The notes under the pieces were generated by a model. It saw nothing but the letters and a program-made list of their open reading frames with translations. It made no database searches and had not been told where the DNA came from. The position numbers and the translations under genes were made by a program. Below, piece after piece: positions 4,297 to 56,094 of a DNA stretch of 64,000 nt. This stretch comes from Clostridia bacterium (GTDB lineage Bacteria > Bacillota > Clostridia > TANB77 > CAG-465), in assembly GCA_045652705.1 (NCBI GenBank), contig JAZRUV010000001.1, positions 12,268 to 76,267 of the forward strand. The letters are read 5' to 3'. How positions within the stretch are numbered: position 1 is the stretch's first letter; every line of letters starts with the position of its first letter.

Positions 4297-4701
4297 CGTT
4301 TTTAGAATTGGGGTGGTATCATTTGACGTCTGAAAAAAGCCTTTAAAATCGAATTTGAGGAAAAGGGCTAAAATTAGTTAAATTTTATAAATTGTATATA
4401 AAAGTATATACTAAATATAAAATATATAGTAAAATAATATAGTAATGAATGACAACTTATAATAAGTAGAGTGAAATAGAAAGTTAAATAAATATATTTA
4501 TATAAATAAGAATATATATAAGGTGTCAGACAGCATATAAGCTATGTATACTAATATTATAATAGAAGTGGGCTAAATAATCAATAGCTCCTTCTCCAAA
4601 ATACACAAAATATTTATTTTGCGAAATAAGGCAAAACAAAATAAACGGTCTTTGACCTTCTATGCCTTGCCCTATCTCACTTATATGGATTTCACTATTT
4701 T

Positions 4702-5025
4702 TTACTTTTTGTAAATTTTATATTCTTTCCAATTATAAAAATTATTTTTACAATCCGCTGTTATCTTATTTATAGATAAACTCAAATCAAAAATATCTTC
4801 TTCAAAATTATTTTTATCAAAAAACAATTCAACTGGTATTTCTTCCATCTTCTTATAATATAAAGATCTTCTTGTAAATGCTAATGAATTAATTATAAGA
4901 CTTGCGTATCTTCTATTCAACTTTAAGTACACATACTTGTTGTTCTTAAGTTTCAATTTTTGCTTCATTTGTTTTTCTATTATATTGTTTTTCATTCGAT
5001 TTCTGATGATATACGGTACAAACAT
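4702..5025 (-). CDS. Hypothetical basic protein carried inside the IR-bounded segment
   Basis: 107-aa K/N-rich ORF with a good SD (AAAGGAGAG, 7 nt before the ATG) next to the inner repeat motif. No family recognised. Confidence 0.5.
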   Translation of the reverse strand: MFVPYIIRNRMKNNIIEKQMKQKLKLKNNKYVYLKLNRRYASLIINSLAFTRRSLYYKKMEEIPVELFFDKNNFEEDIFDLSLSINKITADCKNNFYNWKEYKIYKK

Positions 5026-5076
5026 TAAATCACTCTCCTTTCAGACGTAAACTTTATCACCTTGAAAATTTTAACC

Positions 5077-5101
5077 TCTTAAAATCGATTTTAGAGCGTC
5101 G
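5077..5101. repeat. Right inverted repeat (IR-R) of the candidate invertible segment
   Basis: TCTTAAAATCGATTTTAGAGCGTCG is the exact reverse complement of 4272-4296. Confidence 0.9.
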
Positions 5102-5208
5102 GTTTTTGTTCATATTTGTATAAAATAAATCAAACCCCTACTATATGTAGAGGTTGATTATAAGAGGTTATATATGAAAACTAAAGTTTTCTTTAGTCAG
5201 CATTCAAT

Positions 5209-5781
5209 TTAATATTTCCAGATTCCTAATCCGTCATGTCTTGCTTTAATTTGAGCCGCTACTAATAAGTCTAATTTATCTATGTTTTGTCTTTCTGGTC
5301 TTAATTCAGCAAGTCCTTTTGCAAGTAATGTTTCATTGTATAATGTGCCATCAACATATATATAACCATAAACTTTACCATTTTCAGTTTTTACATTGTC
5401 ATAGTCTACAGTTACTGTCTTACCTTTTAAGTCATTTGCAATAGTTTTAGGTAATTCTGTATTTTTATCATTTTGCATTATACCTATAAGATTAATGTCA
5501 TATGTGTTATTATTTGAATTAACTGTTACAGTTAAACCGTTTGTTTTAGTTACTGTACCTGTTATAGCCTCTGCTGTATATGCATATGCGTTAGTGTCTA
5601 CAACTGGATTTACAACTTCTTGTGACGGTTTGTCCGGGTTTTCTGCAACTACGTTACTATTATTCATAGAATTAAATCCTATAACTACACCTGTAACTAT
5701 TAAAGCTAAAGCTGCAACTATAACTAATGCCACGGGACCATATTGTTTTATGTAAAAACTACGTTTATTCTCATAATACAT
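5209..5781 (-). CDS. Membrane-anchored thermonuclease (SNase)-like OB-fold protein, probably catalytically degenerate
   Basis: N-terminal TM helix. The C-terminal region aligns by eye to staphylococcal nuclease (GKVYGYIYVDGTLYNETLLAKGLAEL...GLGIWKY), but the D-T-P-E and Arg positions are replaced (INLIGIMQND, GKVYG). Confidence 0.6.
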   Translation of the reverse strand: MYYENKRSFYIKQYGPVALVIVAALALIVTGVVIGFNSMNNSNVVAENPDKPSQEVVNPVVDTNAYAYTAEAITGTVTKTNGLTVTVNSNNNTYDINLIGIMQNDKNTELPKTIANDLKGKTVTVDYDNVKTENGKVYGYIYVDGTLYNETLLAKGLAELRPERQNIDKLDLLVAAQIKARHDGLGIWKY

Positions 5782-5941
5782 AAGCTATCAACCTCCTTAT
5801 ATAAATAATGCAAAAACACATTATCTATATACTATAATACCATACTTTTTATGTAAAGTCAATATTATGTTATCAAATAGGCCGAAAAAAGTCTTTTTAT
5901 ATGTATTTTAAGTATAAACGTAGTGTAAATTAGTTTACAAT

Positions 5942-6664
5942 TTATATATCTGCATTATGCCAAACGTTTTGAACGTCGTCATTTGCTTCCATTTTGTCTA
6001 TAAAATTCTCAAGTTTTGTTGCTTCTTCTTCAGATAATTCTTTCTTTATTGTTGGAACCATTTTAATTTCTGCTTCAATTGCTGTATATCCTTTAGTTTC
6101 AAGGTATTCGCTTATTTTAGCAAAGCTTGTTGGTTCAGCTATAATTTCAATGCATTCTTCATCAGATACCATATCTTCAGCACCCAAATCTAGTACTTCC
6201 ATCATAAGTTCATCTTCATCAATATTTGCTGACTTTTCTAATACGAACACTGCTTTTTTGTTGAACATATATCCAACAGAACCTGTTTGTCCCATGCTTC
6301 CGCCGCTTCTATCAAAGATACATCTAATATCTGCAGCCGCTCTATTCTTGTTATCTGTCATTGCTTCAACTATAACAGCAACACCGCAAGGACCAAAACC
6401 TTCATATGTTATTTCTTCATAGTTTGCGTTACTACCTTCTCCTGATGCTTTTTGAATACATCTATTTATATTATCATTTGGCATGTTGTTAGCTTTTGCT
6501 TTAGCTATAACATCTCTTAATTTTGCGTTATTTGCAGGATCAGGTCCACCTTGTTTAACTGCAACAGTCAATTCCTTCCCTATTTTTGAATATATTTGGG
6601 CTTTCTTTCCATCTACTGCTTCTTTTCTTCTTTTTATATTTGCCCATTTGCTATGTCCTGACAT
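5942..6664 (-). CDS. yebC: YebC/PmpR family DNA-binding transcriptional regulator
   Basis: Starts MSGHSKWANIKRRK; 240 aa with typical family length and motifs. Confidence 0.93.
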   Translation of the reverse strand: MSGHSKWANIKRRKEAVDGKKAQIYSKIGKELTVAVKQGGPDPANNAKLRDVIAKAKANNMPNDNINRCIQKASGEGSNANYEEITYEGFGPCGVAVIVEAMTDNKNRAAADIRCIFDRSGGSMGQTGSVGYMFNKKAVFVLEKSANIDEDELMMEVLDLGAEDMVSDEECIEIIAEPTSFAKISEYLETKGYTAIEAEIKMVPTIKKELSEEEATKLENFIDKMEANDDVQNVWHNADI

Positions 6665-48416: not shown

Positions 48417-48809
48417 TTATTCTACATAATCATATTCCCAAAGACTTAATTTGCCATTAACAGATATATGCTCTATTTCTTGAACGTTTTCTAATTTAAA
48501 TCCGTAACCTTTCCAATTGTCTTTCATCGCTATACCTTTATATACCAACGGATCTTTTGGTACTACTTGCTCTCTAAAATTATCATCGACAAAAATACAA
48601 TCTGTTAATGTTGCTTTAGCTATAACACATCCAAGTGGATATTCCAAATTTAGATGTTCAAATCTTTGCATAGCCTCTTTATCTACACCTTTCCCAGCAT
48701 GTATTAATATGTTTCCCCTATAGTTAGTTTTCCATGTTCTAAATTCATATTCTTTATATCCCTTGGCAATCAATGTTGCCCATGGTTGTTTTATAGTTAT
48801 AACTTTCAT
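48417..48809 (-). CDS. ASCH (PUA-like) domain protein
   Basis: MKVITIKQPWATLIAKGYKEYEFRTW is the typical ASCH N-terminus. Confidence 0.75.
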   Translation of the reverse strand: MKVITIKQPWATLIAKGYKEYEFRTWKTNYRGNILIHAGKGVDKEAMQRFEHLNLEYPLGCVIAKATLTDCIFVDDNFREQVVPKDPLVYKGIAMKDNWKGYGFKLENVQEIEHISVNGKLSLWEYDYVE

Positions 48810-49390
48810 TTGTATCTCCTTATCACACTACAGTTTTTCTCAACTCTACTACCACCTATTGTTGCATAATATATTTGAAATACATCTTTTATTATTTTAT
48901 CTTCACTTTCTATTTTATCCATAATAGGAAGTAATAGCGGTGTATAGATAACCTTATATAATATAAAATCACAATTAAGTTCAATAAACCCTAGCTTTTT
49001 ATAAAACTGCATTCTTCTTTGTCTTAACTCGTTTTCTTTTTTGTCTTTACCTAATCCCAATTTTTCTACTTCTATAAATATCCCTTTATATTTACTACTC
49101 ATTTGTTTTAGCCTATCTATAGCTTGCGTACCATATCCTCTACCCTGAAACTCAGGTAATATTGCAAAGTAATCTACTTGAAAATAGCCATTTTTGTCTA
49201 ATGAATTAGCCAAAACAAACCCCACAAAATCTTCACCACTGGTTATTTCAAATATTTGTAATATTGACTTTTTAAAAGCCGTTTCTAATTGTTTATATGA
49301 TTTTCTTTCAGAGTCTGGAAATAATTTTAAATATTCCGGATATATTTTATTTTTAAATCTATTTATATCTACTCCTACTAATTCTAACAT
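48806..49390 (-). CDS. GNAT family N-acetyltransferase
   Basis: QGRGYGTQAI acetyl-CoA binding motif. Start at MLELVG (AAGGAG 9 nt upstream). Confidence 0.8.
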   Translation of the reverse strand: MLELVGVDINRFKNKIYPEYLKLFPDSERKSYKQLETAFKKSILQIFEITSGEDFVGFVLANSLDKNGYFQVDYFAILPEFQGRGYGTQAIDRLKQMSSKYKGIFIEVEKLGLGKDKKENELRQRRMQFYKKLGFIELNCDFILYKVIYTPLLLPIMDKIESEDKIIKDVFQIYYATIGGSRVEKNCSVIRRYK

Positions 49391-49426
49391 TTTTATTTGC
49401 TCCTTAATTAATAACAAAATTAATAA

Positions 49427-50605
49427 TTAATATTTTAAGAATAATTTTACTACTCTTTTTGCAATCTTGTATGCAGGTCCCTCTAATTCTTTTCTTGCAT
49501 TTTTTAATTCCTTACGTATTTCTATCCCTTGTGGACAATGCTTCTCACATTTGCCACATTCAATACAATTTGATGCTGATGTAGATTCTTTTCTAAGAAG
49601 TGTGCACATAACATACTCTTTTATTCCTACAAATTTATTATCTGTATAGCATTTATTATACGCCGAAAAAGTTCCTGGTATATCTACATTCTTAGGACAA
49701 GGCATACAATAGCGGCAGCCCGTGCATCCCACTTTCATATTGTCATTTATAGCTAATACTACTTTTTTCAACAGTTCTTCATCTTGCTCACTAAATTCTC
49801 CTACTTTTGATGTAGATGCCACTTTAATATTCTCCTCTACCATTTCCTTAGAATTCATACCGGATAGAACGCACATAACTTCTTTTTGATTCCACAGCCA
49901 TCTAAAAGCCCACTCGGCAGGAGTACGCTTAATATGATAGTTTTCAAATAACGTCTTCGCCTTATCTGGCAAAGCATTTACAAGTCTTCCTCCACGAAGC
50001 GGCTCCATAATAATTACTGGTATACCTTTACTTGCCGCATAATTTAATCCTGTTCTACCCGCTTGAGAATGCTCATCTAAATAATTGTATTGTATTTGGC
50101 AAAAGTCCCAATCATATGCGTCAATAAGCTTACAAAACATATCTGAATTCCCGTGATATGAAAAACCTATTTGACGTATTATACCTTTTTGTTTTTTGTC
50201 CTCTAACCACTCAAGAATACCAAGCTCTACAAGGCGTTCCCAGCTCTTTACGTCCGTCAACATATGCATTAAGTAATAATCTATGTAATCTGTCTTTAAA
50301 CGTCTTAATTCTTCGTTAAGACACTTTTCAGCCCCTTCTTTTGACTTAATCATATACTGAGGGAGTTTTGTCGCAATATATACTTTATCTCTAATTTTAT
50401 TTCTTTCAAATATTTCACCTATAGCAGCTTCACTTCCAGGATAAATGTATGCCGTATCGTAGTAATTTACTCCTGCTTCATAGGCCATCATTACCTCTTG
50501 TTCAGCCTTTTTTATATCTATCTTGCCCGCCTTTTGAGTAAAACGCATACAACCATACCCTAGTACAGATATTTTATTGTTATATTTATCTAAACGATAT
50601 TCCAT
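49427..50605 (-). CDS. Aldo/keto reductase fused to a C-terminal 4Fe-4S domain
   Basis: AKR N-terminus (LGYGCMRF...YYDTAYIY) with CTGCRYCMPCP and CIECGKCEKHCP clusters. Confidence 0.85.
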   Translation of the reverse strand: MEYRLDKYNNKISVLGYGCMRFTQKAGKIDIKKAEQEVMMAYEAGVNYYDTAYIYPGSEAAIGEIFERNKIRDKVYIATKLPQYMIKSKEGAEKCLNEELRRLKTDYIDYYLMHMLTDVKSWERLVELGILEWLEDKKQKGIIRQIGFSYHGNSDMFCKLIDAYDWDFCQIQYNYLDEHSQAGRTGLNYAASKGIPVIIMEPLRGGRLVNALPDKAKTLFENYHIKRTPAEWAFRWLWNQKEVMCVLSGMNSKEMVEENIKVASTSKVGEFSEQDEELLKKVVLAINDNMKVGCTGCRYCMPCPKNVDIPGTFSAYNKCYTDNKFVGIKEYVMCTLLRKESTSASNCIECGKCEKHCPQGIEIRKELKNARKELEGPAYKIAKRVVKLFLKY

Positions 50606-50723: not shown

Positions 50724-52223
50724 TTATTTACTTTTTATTCCCTCTATTTTTATACGCTTATCCTCGCAAGCAAGCTTTAACTTTTCTGCCCTATATGAAC
50801 ATATTTTATATTGCTTCTTTCCATCGAACTTTATAGTTACGCATTTTGTATATGTGTTACTTTCTAATTTAGGATATTCCGTTATTATTAGACTGGCTTT
50901 AGTTTCTTCTAAAGTTTCAAATGTTGTCATAAAACCCGTACCTGTACCGCCTCTTTCTTTATTAGTTGTGACCGCCTCTAGTCCTAATTTCATTAATGTA
51001 TCAATTGTAAAATCTACACCCGTATCATAAATAGACAATTCGTATTTCTTATTCTTAACACCAAGTATCGCAAGAACTTCCTTGTTATTCTCATCACTCA
51101 AACTAACTGCATTTATAGCATCTCTTAAATGGTCGCCTATTAATGTTTCTAATTTGTCTTTAGAAATTAAGTTATTAACTAAATAATGAATATTACCTAT
51201 TACTTTTAACTTGAAATTAATGTCGTTTTTCTGACACTCACTTTGCATATACTTAAACATATTGTCTATTTCTGGCATTTCAGTTTCATCAAGTTTTGGT
51301 AGTTCCTTAACTTCCTCAAATCTTTCAGAATATTCATTAGTTAGTGATTCTATTATTTTTAAAACATTCGGGCTTATATTTTCTTTATCTATATTATATG
51401 AATTCATATTACTTGCTACCATCAACTCTAACGCTTTTTGCCTGTTATAGAATTCGTGTGTAATTTTGCTTACATTCTTCTTATCTTGTTTTAATGCATC
51501 TATTTCATTTTGCTTTTCAATTAATTCTTTCTTGTACTCTTCCATAGTGTCTGTAAGTAGCTTTTGTTTGTAATGCATAGTTAACATCTTATGAATTGTG
51601 AAATACATTACAACTCCTATTATTAAAAATGATATTATTAAACTCCATGTTATTTGATCATATTTTGCTCCTAATAAGCAATAAAGAATTATCATAATCG
51701 TACTTATATTAATTATTATAATATTTGTTACTTCATTATTAAGCTTAGCATTTATAAATAAAAAACCATTTTTAAATCTTTTTATACTAAAAAATGCATA
51801 TAGAATTCCAAATTCTATCATCAACATACATAATAAACTTACAAATTTGTTGTCAAACCCTAGCAACTGTTCTATCAATTTGTAGGGAATAAAACTTATA
51901 ACAACACTTAATGTATGAAAAATTGCTAAGATTGCATAAGCCAATATAATTATAATCATAGAGTAAGATAATTTTTTGCATGTTATTTTTGATATTATTA
52001 ATGTATAAGTAAAATATAATAGTATAAATGCAAGAAATGAATCAAACACTGTTTTCATATAAATATATGATGGTATTAAAAATATATTTACTAATATTAA
52101 TATAATGTTATGTTTTATAAAGTTTTCCTTACTATTAGATACTTTTACAAAGCAATAATACACCCATATGTTAGTTATAAACAATCTAATAAAATATATT
52201 ATTGTATCTATGTTAATTTCCAT
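50724..52223 (-). CDS. Multi-TM sensor histidine kinase (AgrC/ComD-like, GHKL ATPase)
   Basis: About 6-7 N-terminal TM helices, a coiled coil, H-box SKITHEFYNRQ, N-box-like GDHLRDAINA, G1 YDTGVDF and G2 GGTGTGF. Confidence 0.75.
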   Translation of the reverse strand: MEINIDTIIYFIRLFITNIWVYYCFVKVSNSKENFIKHNIILILVNIFLIPSYIYMKTVFDSFLAFILLYFTYTLIISKITCKKLSYSMIIIILAYAILAIFHTLSVVISFIPYKLIEQLLGFDNKFVSLLCMLMIEFGILYAFFSIKRFKNGFLFINAKLNNEVTNIIIINISTIMIILYCLLGAKYDQITWSLIISFLIIGVVMYFTIHKMLTMHYKQKLLTDTMEEYKKELIEKQNEIDALKQDKKNVSKITHEFYNRQKALELMVASNMNSYNIDKENISPNVLKIIESLTNEYSERFEEVKELPKLDETEMPEIDNMFKYMQSECQKNDINFKLKVIGNIHYLVNNLISKDKLETLIGDHLRDAINAVSLSDENNKEVLAILGVKNKKYELSIYDTGVDFTIDTLMKLGLEAVTTNKERGGTGTGFMTTFETLEETKASLIITEYPKLESNTYTKCVTIKFDGKKQYKICSYRAEKLKLACEDKRIKIEGIKSK

Positions 52224-52317
52224 TTATTTCACCCTGTTAATAATTATAACTAAAATTCCTAATATTAGCAATATTTTTAGTATTTACTTATGATAAGTTG
52301 TGTTCAAATACTAAATA

Positions 52318-52347
52318 AAGCAGTTCCTAATAAATAGAAACTGCTTT
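52318..52347 (-). terminator. Hairpin after the 13-codon ORF
   Basis: Minus strand AAAGCAGTT-12 nt-AACTGCTTT followed by ATTTAGTATTT. Confidence 0.5.
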
Positions 52348-52360
52348 GTTTGAATATATA

Positions 52361-52402
52361 TTAATATCCTAACCAATATCTTAACCACTCTAGAAAACTC
52401 AT
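52361..52402 (-). CDS. 13-codon ORF MSFLEWLRYWLGY (candidate signalling or leader peptide)
   Basis: ATG 52402, TAA 52361-52363, strong SD GGAGGTGA (GGAGGT at 52411-52416) 8-9 nt upstream. Lies between the RR and HK genes. Hand-translated. Confidence 0.35.
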   Translation of the reverse strand: MSFLEWLRYWLGY

Positions 52403-52532
52403 ATATAATCACCTCCACCGCTTAATAAAAAAAATACCATCTATGCGCTTTGCATAAATGATATTTGGAAGTGTTTATATGTTATAATTGATTACATTTT
52501 GTTATAATTTGTTGTTTTTTGCTTTAATTTTA

Positions 52533-53315
52533 TTACATTTCCTTTCTAATCTTGTCTGCATAGTAATATACAAACTCTGTCGGTGTTGGAACACCAGTTT
52601 CATAATTAACTCTTGCTGTATAATATTTAGTTAAGTCTTCTATTGGCGTTATTCTCCAAGCGTGCAATATTGCATTTTGCATTGCTCTACTTATAGTACT
52701 ACTAGACTTTTTATATTTGCCAACTAGATGTTGTACTATAGATAGTTTAGAATTATCTCCACTATGAAGAATAAAATGTATTGCATCACACAAATATTTT
52801 CTTCCGTGAAGATGTGAGCCAACACCAATTAAGTCTAGCTCCTTATTTATTTTGTTATATATACTTTCTTCTAATTTATTATCTTCTACTTCAATCGCAG
52901 CAACTTTATTTGTTGTTTCATAACTTTTAAGCAAAAGCAATGTGTTTATTACAGTTTCTCGAGAATAATTCTTTTGCTTTTTATAAAATACAAAATCTAT
53001 ATTGTTATTATGGCAATAGTCATATACTGTATTAGAATGTACATTTGTCGTTACTATTATCTTAGGACGTTTGTTTATTGGATATTCTTTCATTGTTTCA
53101 ATAAAGTCAAAACCGCTACCTTCACCATCCGTTAATTCTAAATCTAGTATTACCGCATCTGGATTGTGAATTTCAAATTTTTCAACTGCTTTGACTGACG
53201 AATTAGTAACAGAAACTATTTTAACATCTTCTCTATTCTTTACAATATTTTTATAAATTCCACATTCATTCAAATCATCTTCAACAAGTAAAATTGTTAA
53301 TGGCATCTTTTCCAT
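52533..53315 (-). CDS. Response regulator with a Spo0A-type C-terminal DNA-binding domain (Spo0A paralog-like)
   Basis: Receiver (LLVEDD, AVILDLEL, IIVTT, FYKK). The C-terminus aligns by eye to Spo0A_C (IGVGSHLHGRKYLCDAIHFIL...SRAMQNAILHAW...PTPTEFVYYYADKIR versus IGVPAHIKGYLYLREAI...ERAIRHAIEVAW...PTNSEFIAMVADKLR). Confidence 0.75.
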   Translation of the reverse strand: MEKMPLTILLVEDDLNECGIYKNIVKNREDVKIVSVTNSSVKAVEKFEIHNPDAVILDLELTDGEGSGFDFIETMKEYPINKRPKIIVTTNVHSNTVYDYCHNNNIDFVFYKKQKNYSRETVINTLLLLKSYETTNKVAAIEVEDNKLEESIYNKINKELDLIGVGSHLHGRKYLCDAIHFILHSGDNSKLSIVQHLVGKYKKSSSTISRAMQNAILHAWRITPIEDLTKYYTARVNYETGVPTPTEFVYYYADKIRKEM

Positions 53316-53442
53316 ACAAATCTCCTCTCACGATTTTGTAACATATTATCATAATTTGTCACTTGTTACCACACTCAAGCACTATGAGTTTTCACTATTT
53401 AAATTATTATTTTAAATATACTTTAATTGTGGGTGGTAAATT

Positions 53443-53766
53443 ATGAAAAAAGAAATCGGTCAAAGAATTAGAAAAATTCGCGAGAGTATGTTCTTAACAA
53501 AAGAAGCTTTTGCAAAAGAAATAGGAATAACAGGTCAATATTTAGGTTTAATTGAACACGGTCAAAATTATCTATCAATAGAGAAACTTAAAATACTATG
53601 TGACTTCACAGGCTTTTCTGCTGATTACATTTTGTTTGGTAAAGACTTAAATGTGATTAAAACCACTAAAGAAATGCTAACAGAATTCTCTGACGAACAA
53701 TTAATTAGTGCTTGCCTTGCATTAAAAGATTTAGCGTTATATTTAAAATCTAATAATGATGACTAA
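53443..53766 (+). CDS. XRE-family HTH transcriptional regulator
   Basis: IRKIRESMFLTKEAFAKEIGITGQYLGLIEHGQ HTH. 107 aa. Confidence 0.85.
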   Translation: MKKEIGQRIRKIRESMFLTKEAFAKEIGITGQYLGLIEHGQNYLSIEKLKILCDFTGFSADYILFGKDLNVIKTTKEMLTEFSDEQLISACLALKDLALYLKSNNDD

Positions 53767-53962
53767 ATAATAAAAAATCAGTCGATAATCTTTTTTGATT
53801 ATTTGTCTGGTTTTATTTTTTATCTTATTTGAACTAATGTCTAATAATATTTGAATATTTTACATAATTATGCTATAATATTATCGTTAATACTATACTA
53901 TCCTTATGGATTATACATATATTAAGCACAACATCTCATTAATTAATGAAAGGACGATTTTT

Positions 53963-54418
53963 ATGGAATCAAAAAAACGGCATAATCTTAACAAAAGAAA
54001 GCTAATTATTGGATTAATTTTTTGCGTTATTCTTTTATCTAGCTTACTGTACTTTTATCATAATCATTGGAACGGACTTTACATTGTAAATAATATTCCT
54101 ACCTCCATCACCGGAGTTGGGATAATTATTGTCATTTCGCTTACAATTTGCACAGTATTTGTCCTTGGAGGATTTCTTCTTGGAATTTACTTTCCAGCTG
54201 AAAGCAAAAAGAAACTTACGAATTTATCGGATAAATTCGTAAGTGTAGCTATTAAAGATTTTGATAACTTTCCCTTAGCCAAGTTTATTTCTAAAGATGA
54301 TATATCTTGCATCGCTAAACTTGGTGCAGATAAAAAAGTTAGCTATTCTTTTAACGTGAAGGCCAAATTCTACCAAACTGATGATTATGAGCTGTTTTTG
54401 AAACATTTTGATGTTTAA
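53963..54418 (+). CDS. Hypothetical two-TM membrane protein
   Basis: Start at MESKKRH (GAAAGGA upstream). Two hydrophobic helices, then a soluble tail. Confidence 0.5.
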   Translation: MESKKRHNLNKRKLIIGLIFCVILLSSLLYFYHNHWNGLYIVNNIPTSITGVGIIIVISLTICTVFVLGGFLLGIYFPAESKKKLTNLSDKFVSVAIKDFDNFPLAKFISKDDISCIAKLGADKKVSYSFNVKAKFYQTDDYELFLKHFDV

Positions 54419-54639: not shown

Positions 54640-54654
54640 ACTATTTAAAGTCTA
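54640..54654. repeat. 15-bp direct repeat flanking the IS (left copy)
   Basis: ACTATTTAAAGTCTA, identical to 56009-56023. Confidence 0.85.
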
Positions 54655-54687
54655 TGGACTTGTCAACAAAAAGTAGACACAAAAAAC

Positions 54688-55506
54688 CTATCGAAACCCT
54701 AATTGAATTTTATATTCAATTGGGGTTTTGTAGTTTAATGCATAACTAGGTCTATATTCATTATTGTCCCTTACAATATCTTTTATAAATTCTTGTACTG
54801 TGTTATAATTATTTGTGTCAAAATCAATATACATTTCTTTCTTAAGCCAACCATTTTTGGATTCTATAACCGGATTATCTGTAGGTGTTCCGACTCTAGA
54901 CATGGATCTTGTAATAAAGAAGTGTTTTAGCATATTGTTAAATGACGCAGAGGAATATATCGCGCCTTGATCTGTGTGGAAAATTGTTTCAAGTTCGCTA
55001 TATCCTCTTTTTTGTTTGTTATCTAACATCTCATTTAACGCAGCACGATGATTTAAAATATTGCAACCATGTTTAGATTCTCTAACGTCAGAGCCTACAA
55101 TTTCGTTGTTGAAAACATCTAGATAAAAAGTCCAATCATAAGGTTTTCTTTTAAACCAAAATGTAGTTGTATCCGAAACAATCTTTTCGAAAGGACGTGA
55201 AACGTTCCAATTACCCTGTATTATATTAGGATATTTAATTGATTCTTCGCCTGCTTTTTTATATTTGTAATGTCTAGCCTTTGATTTAATATTTAAGGCT
55301 TTACATACCTTATGAACTAAATTATCCGATACAACCCAATCAGTTTCTCTACGTATTAAAGCATTTATTCTACGATAACCGTAACTAGGTTTCTTGATAT
55401 GAATTTCTTCAACTAGTTTCTCTAAATCCAACCTATTAATCTCATAAATGTTTAAAACATCTTTATTCTTTAGCCATTTGTAGTAACCACTTCTAGAGAT
55501 TTTCAT
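54688..55506 (-). CDS. IS3 transposase OrfB (DDE/rve domain); made as an OrfAB fusion by -1 frameshifting
   Basis: DDE residues in VSDTTTF, FHTDQG and DNPVIESKNGWLK. The orfB frame stays open upstream to the slippery site (…IVKEREFEIVLALSSEFNVKSLCEYMKISRSGYYKW). Confidence 0.9.
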   Translation of the reverse strand: MKISRSGYYKWLKNKDVLNIYEINRLDLEKLVEEIHIKKPSYGYRRINALIRRETDWVVSDNLVHKVCKALNIKSKARHYKYKKAGEESIKYPNIIQGNWNVSRPFEKIVSDTTTFWFKRKPYDWTFYLDVFNNEIVGSDVRESKHGCNILNHRAALNEMLDNKQKRGYSELETIFHTDQGAIYSSASFNNMLKHFFITRSMSRVGTPTDNPVIESKNGWLKKEMYIDFDTNNYNTVQEFIKDIVRDNNEYRPSYALNYKTPIEYKIQLGFR

Positions 55507-55577
55507 ATATTCACATAATGATTTAACATTAAACTCAGAGCTTAATGCTAAAACAATTTCAAATTCTCTTTCTTTGA

Positions 55578-55925
55578 CTATTTGAATATTACAACGGAAC
55601 CATCTCCTTTCACAATGTATCCTTTTTTTAATCTTTCATTCTCGATTCTTAATTTCATATTTTCATATTCAAGTTTTTCTAATTCTGAAAGTTCGTTACG
55701 TCTTTGATATTTAGTTAACGGATTACCAGGTTTTCTTTTATTAGTTAATCCAGGCTCTCCTTCGGACAAGTATATTCTTGTCCATTTTCTAACTGTACCA
55801 CTATCTACATTTTCTTCTCGAGAGACTTCTCTAGAAGATTTTCCTTCCAATACAACTTTATTAACTATTCTTAATTTTTCTTCTTTACTCCAATATTTGT
55901 TTTTTCCACCTTTTGGTCTTCCCAT
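55578..55925 (-). CDS. IS3 transposase OrfA (HTH)
   Basis: 115 aa with an HTH and a leucine-zipper-like region (LEKLEYENMKLRIENERLKK). SD GGGAGGAA upstream. Confidence 0.9.
   Translation of the reverse strand: MGRPKGGKNKYWSKEEKLRIVNKVVLEGKSSREVSREENVDSGTVRKWTRIYLSEGEPGLTNKRKPGNPLTKYQRRNELSELEKLEYENMKLRIENERLKKGYIVKGDGSVVIFK
55623..55629 (-). promoter_or_regulatory. Programmed -1 ribosomal frameshift slippery run (A7 followed by G)
   Basis: Minus strand TTA AAA AAA GGA lies near the end of orfA, and the -1 frame continues into orfB. Confidence 0.75.
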
Positions 55926-56008
55926 AATACATTCCTCCCTAATGTTATTTTAACACAAACAAAAAAATGAAAGTAGATTTTTGTGTCTACTTTCATTTTA
56001 CCACTTCA

Positions 56009-56023
56009 ACTATTTAAAGTCTA
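56009..56023. repeat. 15-bp direct repeat flanking the IS (right copy)
   Basis: ACTATTTAAAGTCTA, identical to 54640-54654. Confidence 0.85.
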
Positions 56024-56094
56024 GGGAGGGCGAATTTATTCGCTTTGTTCTCTTATAACAAACGTTGTACTTAATATTATGTCGTTTTACAGGT

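Follow-up and report, generated by a model that had tools for sequence, protein, structure and literature searches.

What does a gene of only 13 codons do between a response regulator and a histidine kinase? The arrangement occurs in a 64,000-nucleotide stretch of the genome of a Clostridia bacterium (GenBank assembly GCA_045652705.1, contig JAZRUV010000001.1, positions 12,268 to 76,267), the whole of which we call the window and in whose coordinates positions are given. A Spo0A-type response regulator (RR), a tryptophan-rich open reading frame (ORF) and a histidine kinase (HK) with several transmembrane (TM) helices follow one another there on the minus strand. An earlier reading of this DNA, made from its letters without database searches (the sequence-only reading), had suggested an undescribed peptide-linked circuit with a Spo0A-like output. 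Conservation, a block of joint variation in peptide and sensor, and cis-acting boxes now support this suggestion. We consider it likely that the genes belong to a four-part cassette for cell-to-cell peptide signalling, which would consist of an XRE-family regulator, an RR that is a Spo0A paralog, a leaderless Trp-rich peptide of 12–18 residues and a seven-TM HK. The 13-codon gene most likely encodes the signal peptide of the adjacent kinase. The genes concerned are the following.

52402..52361, minus strand: peptide gene, 13 codons plus stop, MSFLEWLRYWLGY, with the Shine-Dalgarno (SD) sequence GGAGGTGA at 52416..52409
52223..50724, minus strand: kinase, 499 aa (AlphaFold, Foldseek, alignment of 26 homologs)
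51579..52223, minus strand: kinase sensor, aa 1–215, seven TM helices with very short outer loops (AlphaFold model)
50724..51578, minus strand: cytoplasmic kinase core, aa 216–499, DHp-CA, with His256 in the DHp helix (THEFYNRQKALE)
53315..52533, minus strand: response regulator, 260 aa, receiver domain and Spo0A_C (Pfam)
53443..53766, plus strand: XRE-family helix-turn-helix (HTH) regulator, 107 aa, HTH only (Pfam HTH_3, E=3.5e-9)

Is the mini-ORF a gene in its own right? The SD sequence, the 13 codons and a downstream hairpin lie where the sequence-only reading had placed them, on the minus strand. We compared 79 loci from species-representative genomes, with counts of RR–HK spacers covering those that have enough DNA. 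Wherever the DNA suffices, the RR lies directly upstream of the kinase, across a spacer of about 230–650 nt. An SD-preceded, Trp-rich ORF of 12–18 codons occupies 64 of 65 such spacers and also precedes the HK in all four loci in which the RR is unlinked. The short aromatic ORF is thus kept between homologous RR–HK pairs, and it is retained across about 70 related gut-bacterial species. Such conservation is far beyond chance. The peptides open with M-[ST]-F-W-[ED]-W-[LI] or M-[ST]-W-[DE]-[DE]-x-W. Among 61 distinct peptides, Trp makes up 19% and Cys 0.3% of residues, and net charge ranges from +1 to -3 (mostly 0 to -2). The conserved Ser, Phe and Glu residues are encoded by synonymous codons (AGT/AGC/TCA, TTT/TTC and GAA/GAG, respectively), and therefore selection acts on the peptide itself. 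In other words, the comparison shows the mini-ORF to be an independent, translated-looking gene under selection at the amino-acid level.

The strongest indication of what the peptide does comes from loci that are otherwise nearly identical. We compared the nucleotide sequences of the pairs L030/L040, L039/L041, L039/L050, L005/L006 and L026/L042 in sliding windows. Over the XRE and RR genes, the promoter of the peptide gene, the kinase core and the flanks, identity is about 88–100% (mostly 95–100%). From inside the peptide ORF, past its conserved first codons, identity falls to 50–70%, and it recovers at about HK residue 130–215, where the TM sensor ends. L030 and L040, for example, are 100% identical up to the ORF, 51–70% through the sensor and 98–100% thereafter. 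Across 14 close, non-independent pairs, the edit distance between peptides correlates with sensor identity at a Spearman coefficient of -0.94, compared with +0.30 for identity of the kinase core and +0.40 for that of the RR; because pairs overlap in this way, a p-value for the correlation is not to be read at face value. The loci L005 and L008 share an identical peptide and have sensors that are 96% identical, with RRs that are only 89–92% identical. Since the peptide gene and the sensor diverge together amid near-identity, we interpret them as a specific, co-evolving ligand–receptor pair. The pattern matches the specificity blocks that define agr and comCD pherotypes. Together with its conservation, this co-variation upholds the proposal that the mini-ORF belongs to a peptide-linked circuit.

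Some loci hold the module twice. In L007 (4179–6476 and 7394–9929), as also in L009 and L011, modules are duplicated in tandem. The first RR–HK pair of L007 has a gap of only 24 nt and no peptide gene; the second carries the peptide MSFWEWLAYWLK, and sensor identity between the two is 74%. Perhaps the first pair serves as a receptor that 'listens' without a peptide of its own. The first kinase of the tandem modules in L011 looks broken.

If the peptide is a signal, how would it be read out? The RR has a receiver domain (Pfam Response_reg, E=8e-10) followed by a C-terminal domain that the sequence-only reading had likened by eye to Spo0A. That likeness is borne out. Spo0A_C (PF08769) matches at E=1.7e-14 with 54.1 bits against a gathering cut-off of 25, over profile positions 1–104 of 104, and the C-terminal half can be aligned along its entire length with two solved effector domains of Spo0A, 1FC3 and 1LQ1. 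The RR had also been taken for a paralog of Spo0A, and we agree, because it scores 88.4 bits on the Spo0A equivalog TIGR02875, below the curated cut-off of 200, and because the genuine Spo0A of this genome is encoded on another contig (C13:66492–67262, 350 bits). By alignment of 14 sequences that include the true Spo0A, the RR keeps the parts of a phospho-accepting receiver: an acidic pocket (D13 invariant, D14 nearly invariant), the acceptor Asp58, T89/T90 and K112. Pfam finds no LytTR domain in it. More than 1,700 homologs of the RR were found, every one with PF00072 and PF08769.

The RR and Spo0A share the same two-domain architecture and a DNA-binding domain that can be aligned over its full length, and the putative sites of the RR resemble the 0A box TGTCGAA. 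Spo0A, however, is an orphan regulator that receives its input from orphan kinases or a phosphorelay, whereas its paralog here has a dedicated kinase, scores below the cut-off and coexists with a true Spo0A. Spo0A paralogs have been counted in some Clostridiales in a preprint passage that reports no function for them (bioRxiv 10.1101/2022.02.25.481979), and truncated Spo0A copies occur in gut phages (PMC10294663). In the cassette, a Spo0A paralog would for the first time be placed in a functional context.

The kinase is less easily placed. Searches of Pfam, NCBIfam, PADLOC and PHROGs gave no match above cut-off (HATPase_c, E=0.11), and PDB sequences gave only a weak match to the G box of KinB. 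The AlphaFold model (pLDDT 75) has seven TM helices, a long DHp helix with His256 and a CA domain, and Foldseek matches it to the DHp-CA portions of LvrB, BceS, WalK, HK853 and AgrC (E=4e-5 and weaker), AgrC not foremost among them. The core carries an N box (GDHLRDAINA) and the motifs YDTG and GGTGTGF. In 26 homologs H256, D364, G402, G426, G428 and G430 are invariant and N371 nearly so. By its conserved boxes and modelled fold, the protein is predicted to be a two-component histidine kinase with DHp and GHKL parts. Its family is large: a word-indexed search gives more than 1,000 members, and an exhaustive profile search yields 1,401 clusters at 50% identity.

The sequence-only reading had described this HK as AgrC/ComD-like. 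The sensor with many TM helices and short loops stands in the AlphaFold model; kinship with HPK10 kinases and AgrC does not. Among profile hidden Markov models (HMMs), Spo0A_C matches the RR over the full profile length, HATPase_c stays below its cut-off in the kinase, and the AgrC-type profiles HATPase_c_5 (PF14501) and SPOB_a do not match the kinase, the former not even at E<=10. As a control, the genome's own agr-type kinase, on contig C4, matches HATPase_c_5 at 5.5e-12 and also SPOB_a. Aligned by hhalign with that kinase, the profile of the cassette kinase family reaches a probability of 2.6%, in the N-to-G2 region alone; the two kinases seem to have no detectable relation beyond this part of GHKL. 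The H-box motif T-H-E-F-Y-N is invariant and fits H-[DE]-[YF]-x-N, which we take to be the HPK10 consensus. With its seven modelled TM helices, the kinase resembles HPK10 and AgrC in function, not in family, and its own family is unclassified.

The sequence-only reading had treated the XRE gene as a mere neighbour of the module. Comparison makes it part of the cassette. An ortholog of about 104–110 aa is divergent from the RR gene in 58 loci, and it stays linked to the RR where the peptide–HK pair lies elsewhere. In the split loci L013, L014, L015 and L024 (at about 4600–6450) and in L083, the peptide gene and kinase follow ftsH, and XRE and RR lie on another contig. To judge from this linkage, the XRE gene is a conserved fourth member. 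Triple boxes stand before this gene and before the peptide gene.

53337..53362, plus strand: triple box TGTAAC-N4-TATCAT-N4-TGTCAC with a 10-bp period, in the XRE/RR divergent region and oriented towards XRE, a candidate RR site
52481..52506, minus strand: triple box TATAAC-N4-TGTAAT-N4-TATAAC, upstream of the peptide gene, a candidate RR site resembling the 0A box

The pattern T[GA]T[CA]A[CT]-N4, repeated three times, has exactly two matches in the 1.275-Mb genome, both in the module regions, versus none in five Markov simulations. In the relatives G202 and G018 the triple box again marks both module regions, and the one extra match in G018 is a simple TATAAT repeat. Across the genus, three-box matches stand at module promoters and nowhere else once simple TATAAT or tandem repeats are set aside. 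Among the homologous loci, the peptide gene is preceded by two or three TGT[CA]A[CT] boxes at an exact 10-bp period, or by CGACAT in reverse. At least two strict phased boxes occur there in 24 of 64 loci, compared with 0.2 expected from shuffles. Phased boxes recur in the XRE/RR divergent region of relatives, oriented towards XRE. Upstream of the peptide gene in the split loci L013–15 and L024 the boxes read TGTCGAA, TGTCACA and TGTCAAA, the first being a canonical 0A box. The RR has a Spo0A-type DNA-binding domain, and for this reason the boxes are probably its binding sites.

Two-box matches in the genome number 10, near chance (3–7 in simulations), and lie mostly inside genes. Among them, the TGTAAC-N4-TGTAAT at C36:15431, which overlaps the promoter of a ParA/Soj-like gene, is the sole intergenic match that might be an external target. 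In G124, of the same genus, contigs C19, C22, C26 and C50 carry 10-bp tandem repeat arrays at or near their ends (TGTCATAGCC, TGTCATACCC, TGTCATTTGG), in which every repeat unit starts with a TGTCAT box, as in the module repeats.

How the peptide gene might be expressed can be seen from the elements around it.

52424..52466, minus strand: hairpin 1 with T-run, RR terminator (terminator scan)
52439..52431, minus strand: TGGTATTTT at the 3′ base of hairpin 1, an extended -10-like element, putative peptide-gene promoter
52347..52317, minus strand: hairpin 2 with T-run, intrinsic terminator of the peptide gene (terminator scan; conserved in relatives)
52271..52243, minus strand: sigma-A-type kinase promoter, TTGCTA-17-TATAAT

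Hairpin 1 is present in most loci. Its non-Watson–Crick pairs comprise 57 G.U and 2 A.C, a count to be read with the greater tolerance of the hairpin finder for G.U than for A.C, and on this ground we regard it as sense-strand RNA. The element TGnTAT(T/C)(T/C)T stands at its 3′ base in 59 of 64 loci, in most of them 28–40 nt before the ATG; in the split loci, hairpin 1 is absent and TGATAAT is kept 58 nt from the upstream boxes. We infer that this extended -10-like element is the promoter of the peptide gene. Hairpin 2 begins 14 nt past the stop codon. Downstream of it, about 20 nt before the HK start, the kinase promoter TTGAtT-17-TATAAT occurs in 60 of 64 loci, its -35 usually inside the 3′ arm of the hairpin. 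RR, peptide gene and HK, in this order, would accordingly form three separate transcription units with predicted starts. A search of Rfam over the whole module gave nothing near gathering scores.

We also considered hairpin 1 as a DNA operator for XRE, which the same pair counts disfavour, again with a finder that favours G.U. As a further feature of this region, the T-run of hairpin 1 in L027, L039, L041, L050 and L067 can base-pair with a run of A immediately upstream of the SD sequence (TATCTTTTTATTGTAAnAAATAAAAAGATA), forming a second conserved stem upstream of the peptide gene that might affect translation initiation.

These parts suggest a simple mechanism. The peptide would leave the cell, or partition into the membrane interface, with no gene dedicated to its processing or export, and would bind the TM sensor of the kinase. 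The kinase would then autophosphorylate on His256 and pass the phosphate to Asp58 of the RR, and the phosphorylated RR would bind the 10-bp-phased TGT[CA]A[CT] boxes. Those before the peptide gene could give positive feedback, and those before XRE could give output. Since the boxes in this genome stand before the peptide gene and XRE alone, output would go by way of XRE and the variable gene that follows it. As the RR has the Spo0A DNA-binding fold and some of the boxes are canonical TGTCGAA, it may in addition link the Spo0A regulon to cell density. The many specificity alleles suggest strain- or species-specific signalling between cells, as in pherotypes.

Could the cassette be a form of a known system? 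Peptide quorum sensing in Firmicutes follows a few known designs (agr, the double-glycine three-component systems, ComQXPA and RRNPP), each with dedicated or known processing or transport proteins. With agr of staphylococci, listeriae and clostridia, the cassette shares a small peptide gene beside a polytopic HK and a regulator, an autoinduction-type promoter with repeated regulator sites, and a hypervariable peptide–sensor block that defines specificity groups. It differs in lacking AgrB and a propeptide, the whole ORF having 12–18 codons and almost never Cys, in a kinase without HATPase_c_5 or SPOB_a, in an RR with Spo0A_C instead of LytTR, and in having XRE as part of the unit. The features of AgrD (an N-terminal helix, a Cys or Ser ring residue and a C-terminal tail) are not found in the short cassette peptides. 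As the sequence-only reading had noted, the module holds no AgrB/ComAB-type gene. AgrB (PF04647) is absent from the module and the window, and its sole match in the genome is on contig C4.

The locus on contig C4 (6808–9822) consists of AgrB (205 aa, PF04647), a 36-aa AgrD-like ORF without Cys (MKKLLAKIVEAYAKSTTTSSMMWYFHATKAPRSLVK), and a convergent HPK10 kinase (HATPase_c_5) with a LytTR regulator. This agr-like locus coexists with the cassette in a 1.28-Mb genome.

ComCDE, BlpCHR and PlnABCD of streptococci and lactobacilli likewise combine an induction peptide with HK and RR, have direct repeats in the promoter of the peptide gene, and vary in peptide and sensor between pherotypes. The cassette, however, has no double-glycine leader, no linked ABC-peptidase exporter and no LytTR regulator; its repeats have a 10-bp period versus about 21 bp, and its order is RR–peptide–HK in three transcription units. 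ComQXPA of Bacillus subtilis offers a Trp-containing pheromone, a multi-TM kinase and a polymorphic block of comQ, comX and the N-terminal part of comP. The cassette, by contrast, has no linked ComQ-like prenyltransferase and no precursor of about 55 aa from which the peptide would be cut, and its RR is of Spo0A type, not NarL. The 79 loci contain no third conserved enzyme gene that could be of ComQ type, a search in which no ComQ-specific HMM was run. The Rgg/ComR–SHP/XIP systems (RRNPP) use a cytoplasmic HTH-TPR receptor of about 300 aa, unlike the cassette XRE protein with its 107 aa and HTH only, and EcsB/PptB (PF05975) is absent from the genome. By analogy, then, the cassette appears to work like agr or ComCDE, but it is a member of neither.

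Several observations weigh against signalling between cells, or against parts of the mechanism proposed for it. The cassette has no linked exporter, protease or modifying enzyme, only XRE, RR and HK recurring in more than 14 of the 79 loci, and the absence of EcsB/PptB counts here as well. About 58 nt separate the boxes from the putative -10 downstream of them, a long distance for an activator, and the start of the peptide gene is itself inferred. A regulon search of the genome and the genus gave no target outside the cassette. L026 and L042 have nearly the same peptide, yet their sensors are only 75% identical. A global partial Mantel test that set peptide against sensor across 53 divergent loci gave no significant result (partial r=0.07, p=0.13), saturation of divergence being the probable cause, and we used the analysis of close pairs instead. 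Finally, co-variation proves a specific partnership, not action between cells.

An alternative would therefore keep the partnership and drop the second cell. The peptide would stay in the inner membrane leaflet of its producer and tune that cell's own kinase, in the manner of PhoP-induced MgrB on PhoQ. The lack of linked export or processing genes and of EcsB/PptB would fit such a cell-autonomous feedback modulator, as would a tiny, aromatic, neutral or acidic peptide and a kinase sensor modelled almost without extracellular loops; the putative RR boxes at the peptide gene would be a feedback element in any case. As in MgrB–PhoQ, a small peptide whose gene is probably under the control of the regulator would act on the membrane domain of the cognate kinase. 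MgrB, however, is a 47-aa transmembrane protein that is not allelically diversified with its kinase, and 13 residues are too short to span the bilayer. With a modulator of this kind it is hard to see why there should be dozens of alleles with sharp bounds, or alleles common to different backgrounds (L005/L008). The peptide-less RR–HK copy beside a complete module in L007 fits a shared signal better. We regard this alternative as unlikely, though worth keeping in mind.

Another possibility is that the peptide is an effector under two-component control, a surfactant like phenol-soluble modulins, delta-toxin or leaderless bacteriocins, and that the kinase senses something else. Short Trp-rich peptides are membrane-active, the putative RR boxes lie at the peptide gene, and the agr regulator of staphylococci has small formylated peptides among its direct targets. 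Counter to this, specific co-variation with the sensor half of the kinase would be unexpected for an effector, the net charge is 0 to -2 and not cationic, and no immunity or export genes are linked. An effector role is therefore quite improbable. Least probable, to the point that we set it aside, is a regulatory leader or arrest peptide that, like trpL or tnaC, would control by its translation whether transcription reads through into the kinase gene: the two or three Trp codons among its 13 and the hairpin with T-run 14 nt past the stop would suit it, but the peptide gene has its own terminator, followed in 60 of 64 loci by the separate, near-consensus kinase promoter (often within the 3′ arm), the hairpin is simple with no conserved alternative antiterminator pairing and no Rfam family match, non-Trp residues are kept through synonymous changes, and the C-terminal half of the peptide is hypervariable together with the sensor.

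Cell-to-cell signalling by the cassette thus remains our preferred reading. Whether it also represents an unrecognised class of Gram-positive signalling is a larger claim, to which we give somewhat less than an even chance. Such a class would combine a leaderless, probably unmodified Trp-rich peptide, intramembrane sensing by a new family of seven-TM kinases, readout by a Spo0A paralog on sites resembling 0A boxes, and many pherotype alleles among TANB77-type bacteria. We found no description of the cassette in the literature on Spo0A paralogs, on leaderless or Trp-rich autoinducers, or on the peptide motif. If the claim is true, it widens the range of ways in which a ribosomal peptide can act as a signal, with all three core parts drawn from other families and no linked processing or export. 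The hypothesis is directly testable, as the peptides are short enough for chemical synthesis.

How widely is the cassette distributed? Of 301 genomes of the order to which the window belongs, 78 carry the kinase, and they span 13 of 43 genera. In the genus of the window itself, 12 of the 13 species have it, as a rule in one copy. A sample of about 290 genomes from elsewhere in the class contained no example. Carrier genomes are all 1.1–2.0 Mb in size, and one of the loci is that of Clostridium sp. CAG:245, whose genus falls in the uncultured order TANB77. The family is thus confined to one order of small-genome, uncultured gut Clostridia, probably TANB77. The genome under study has only seven receiver-domain proteins, and for this reason a retained signalling system with many alleles likely matters ecologically. 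The cassette could be useful in cultivation attempts or strain typing. TANB77 has been linked to immunotherapy response (PMC11680825), which applies here if the host order is TANB77.

The sequence-only reading had placed the module in an accessory patch. We see it instead as syntenic core, because in relatives of the genus it occupies the same place between rumA and a DUF4046 gene without certain elements that lie there in the window; its presence in nearly all species of the genus speaks against the patch as well. These elements are an IS3 element between module and rumA (54640–56030), missing from G018 and G202, and aldo/keto reductase, GNAT and ASCH genes between the kinase and the DUF4046 gene (48417–50605), missing from G018. 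PADLOC and PHROGs gave no support for a phage or defence origin of the module.

One further gene lies on the far side of XRE.

53906..54418, plus strand: 170-aa membrane protein downstream of XRE, no family match, 72% identical in the relative G202

It stands in what may be a lineage-variable 'cargo' position and is possibly an output gene. In about 27 other loci the position behind XRE is taken by unrelated small proteins of 70–120 aa (clusters 3, 6 and 77). Those of cluster 3 (L004–L012, L022, L044, L069) are small helical proteins without Pfam match, and cluster 6 (L023, L026, L033, L042, L048, L049, L064, L072, L077) is an unrelated small helical family, likewise without Pfam match. The proteins of both clusters may be variable outputs or partners of XRE.

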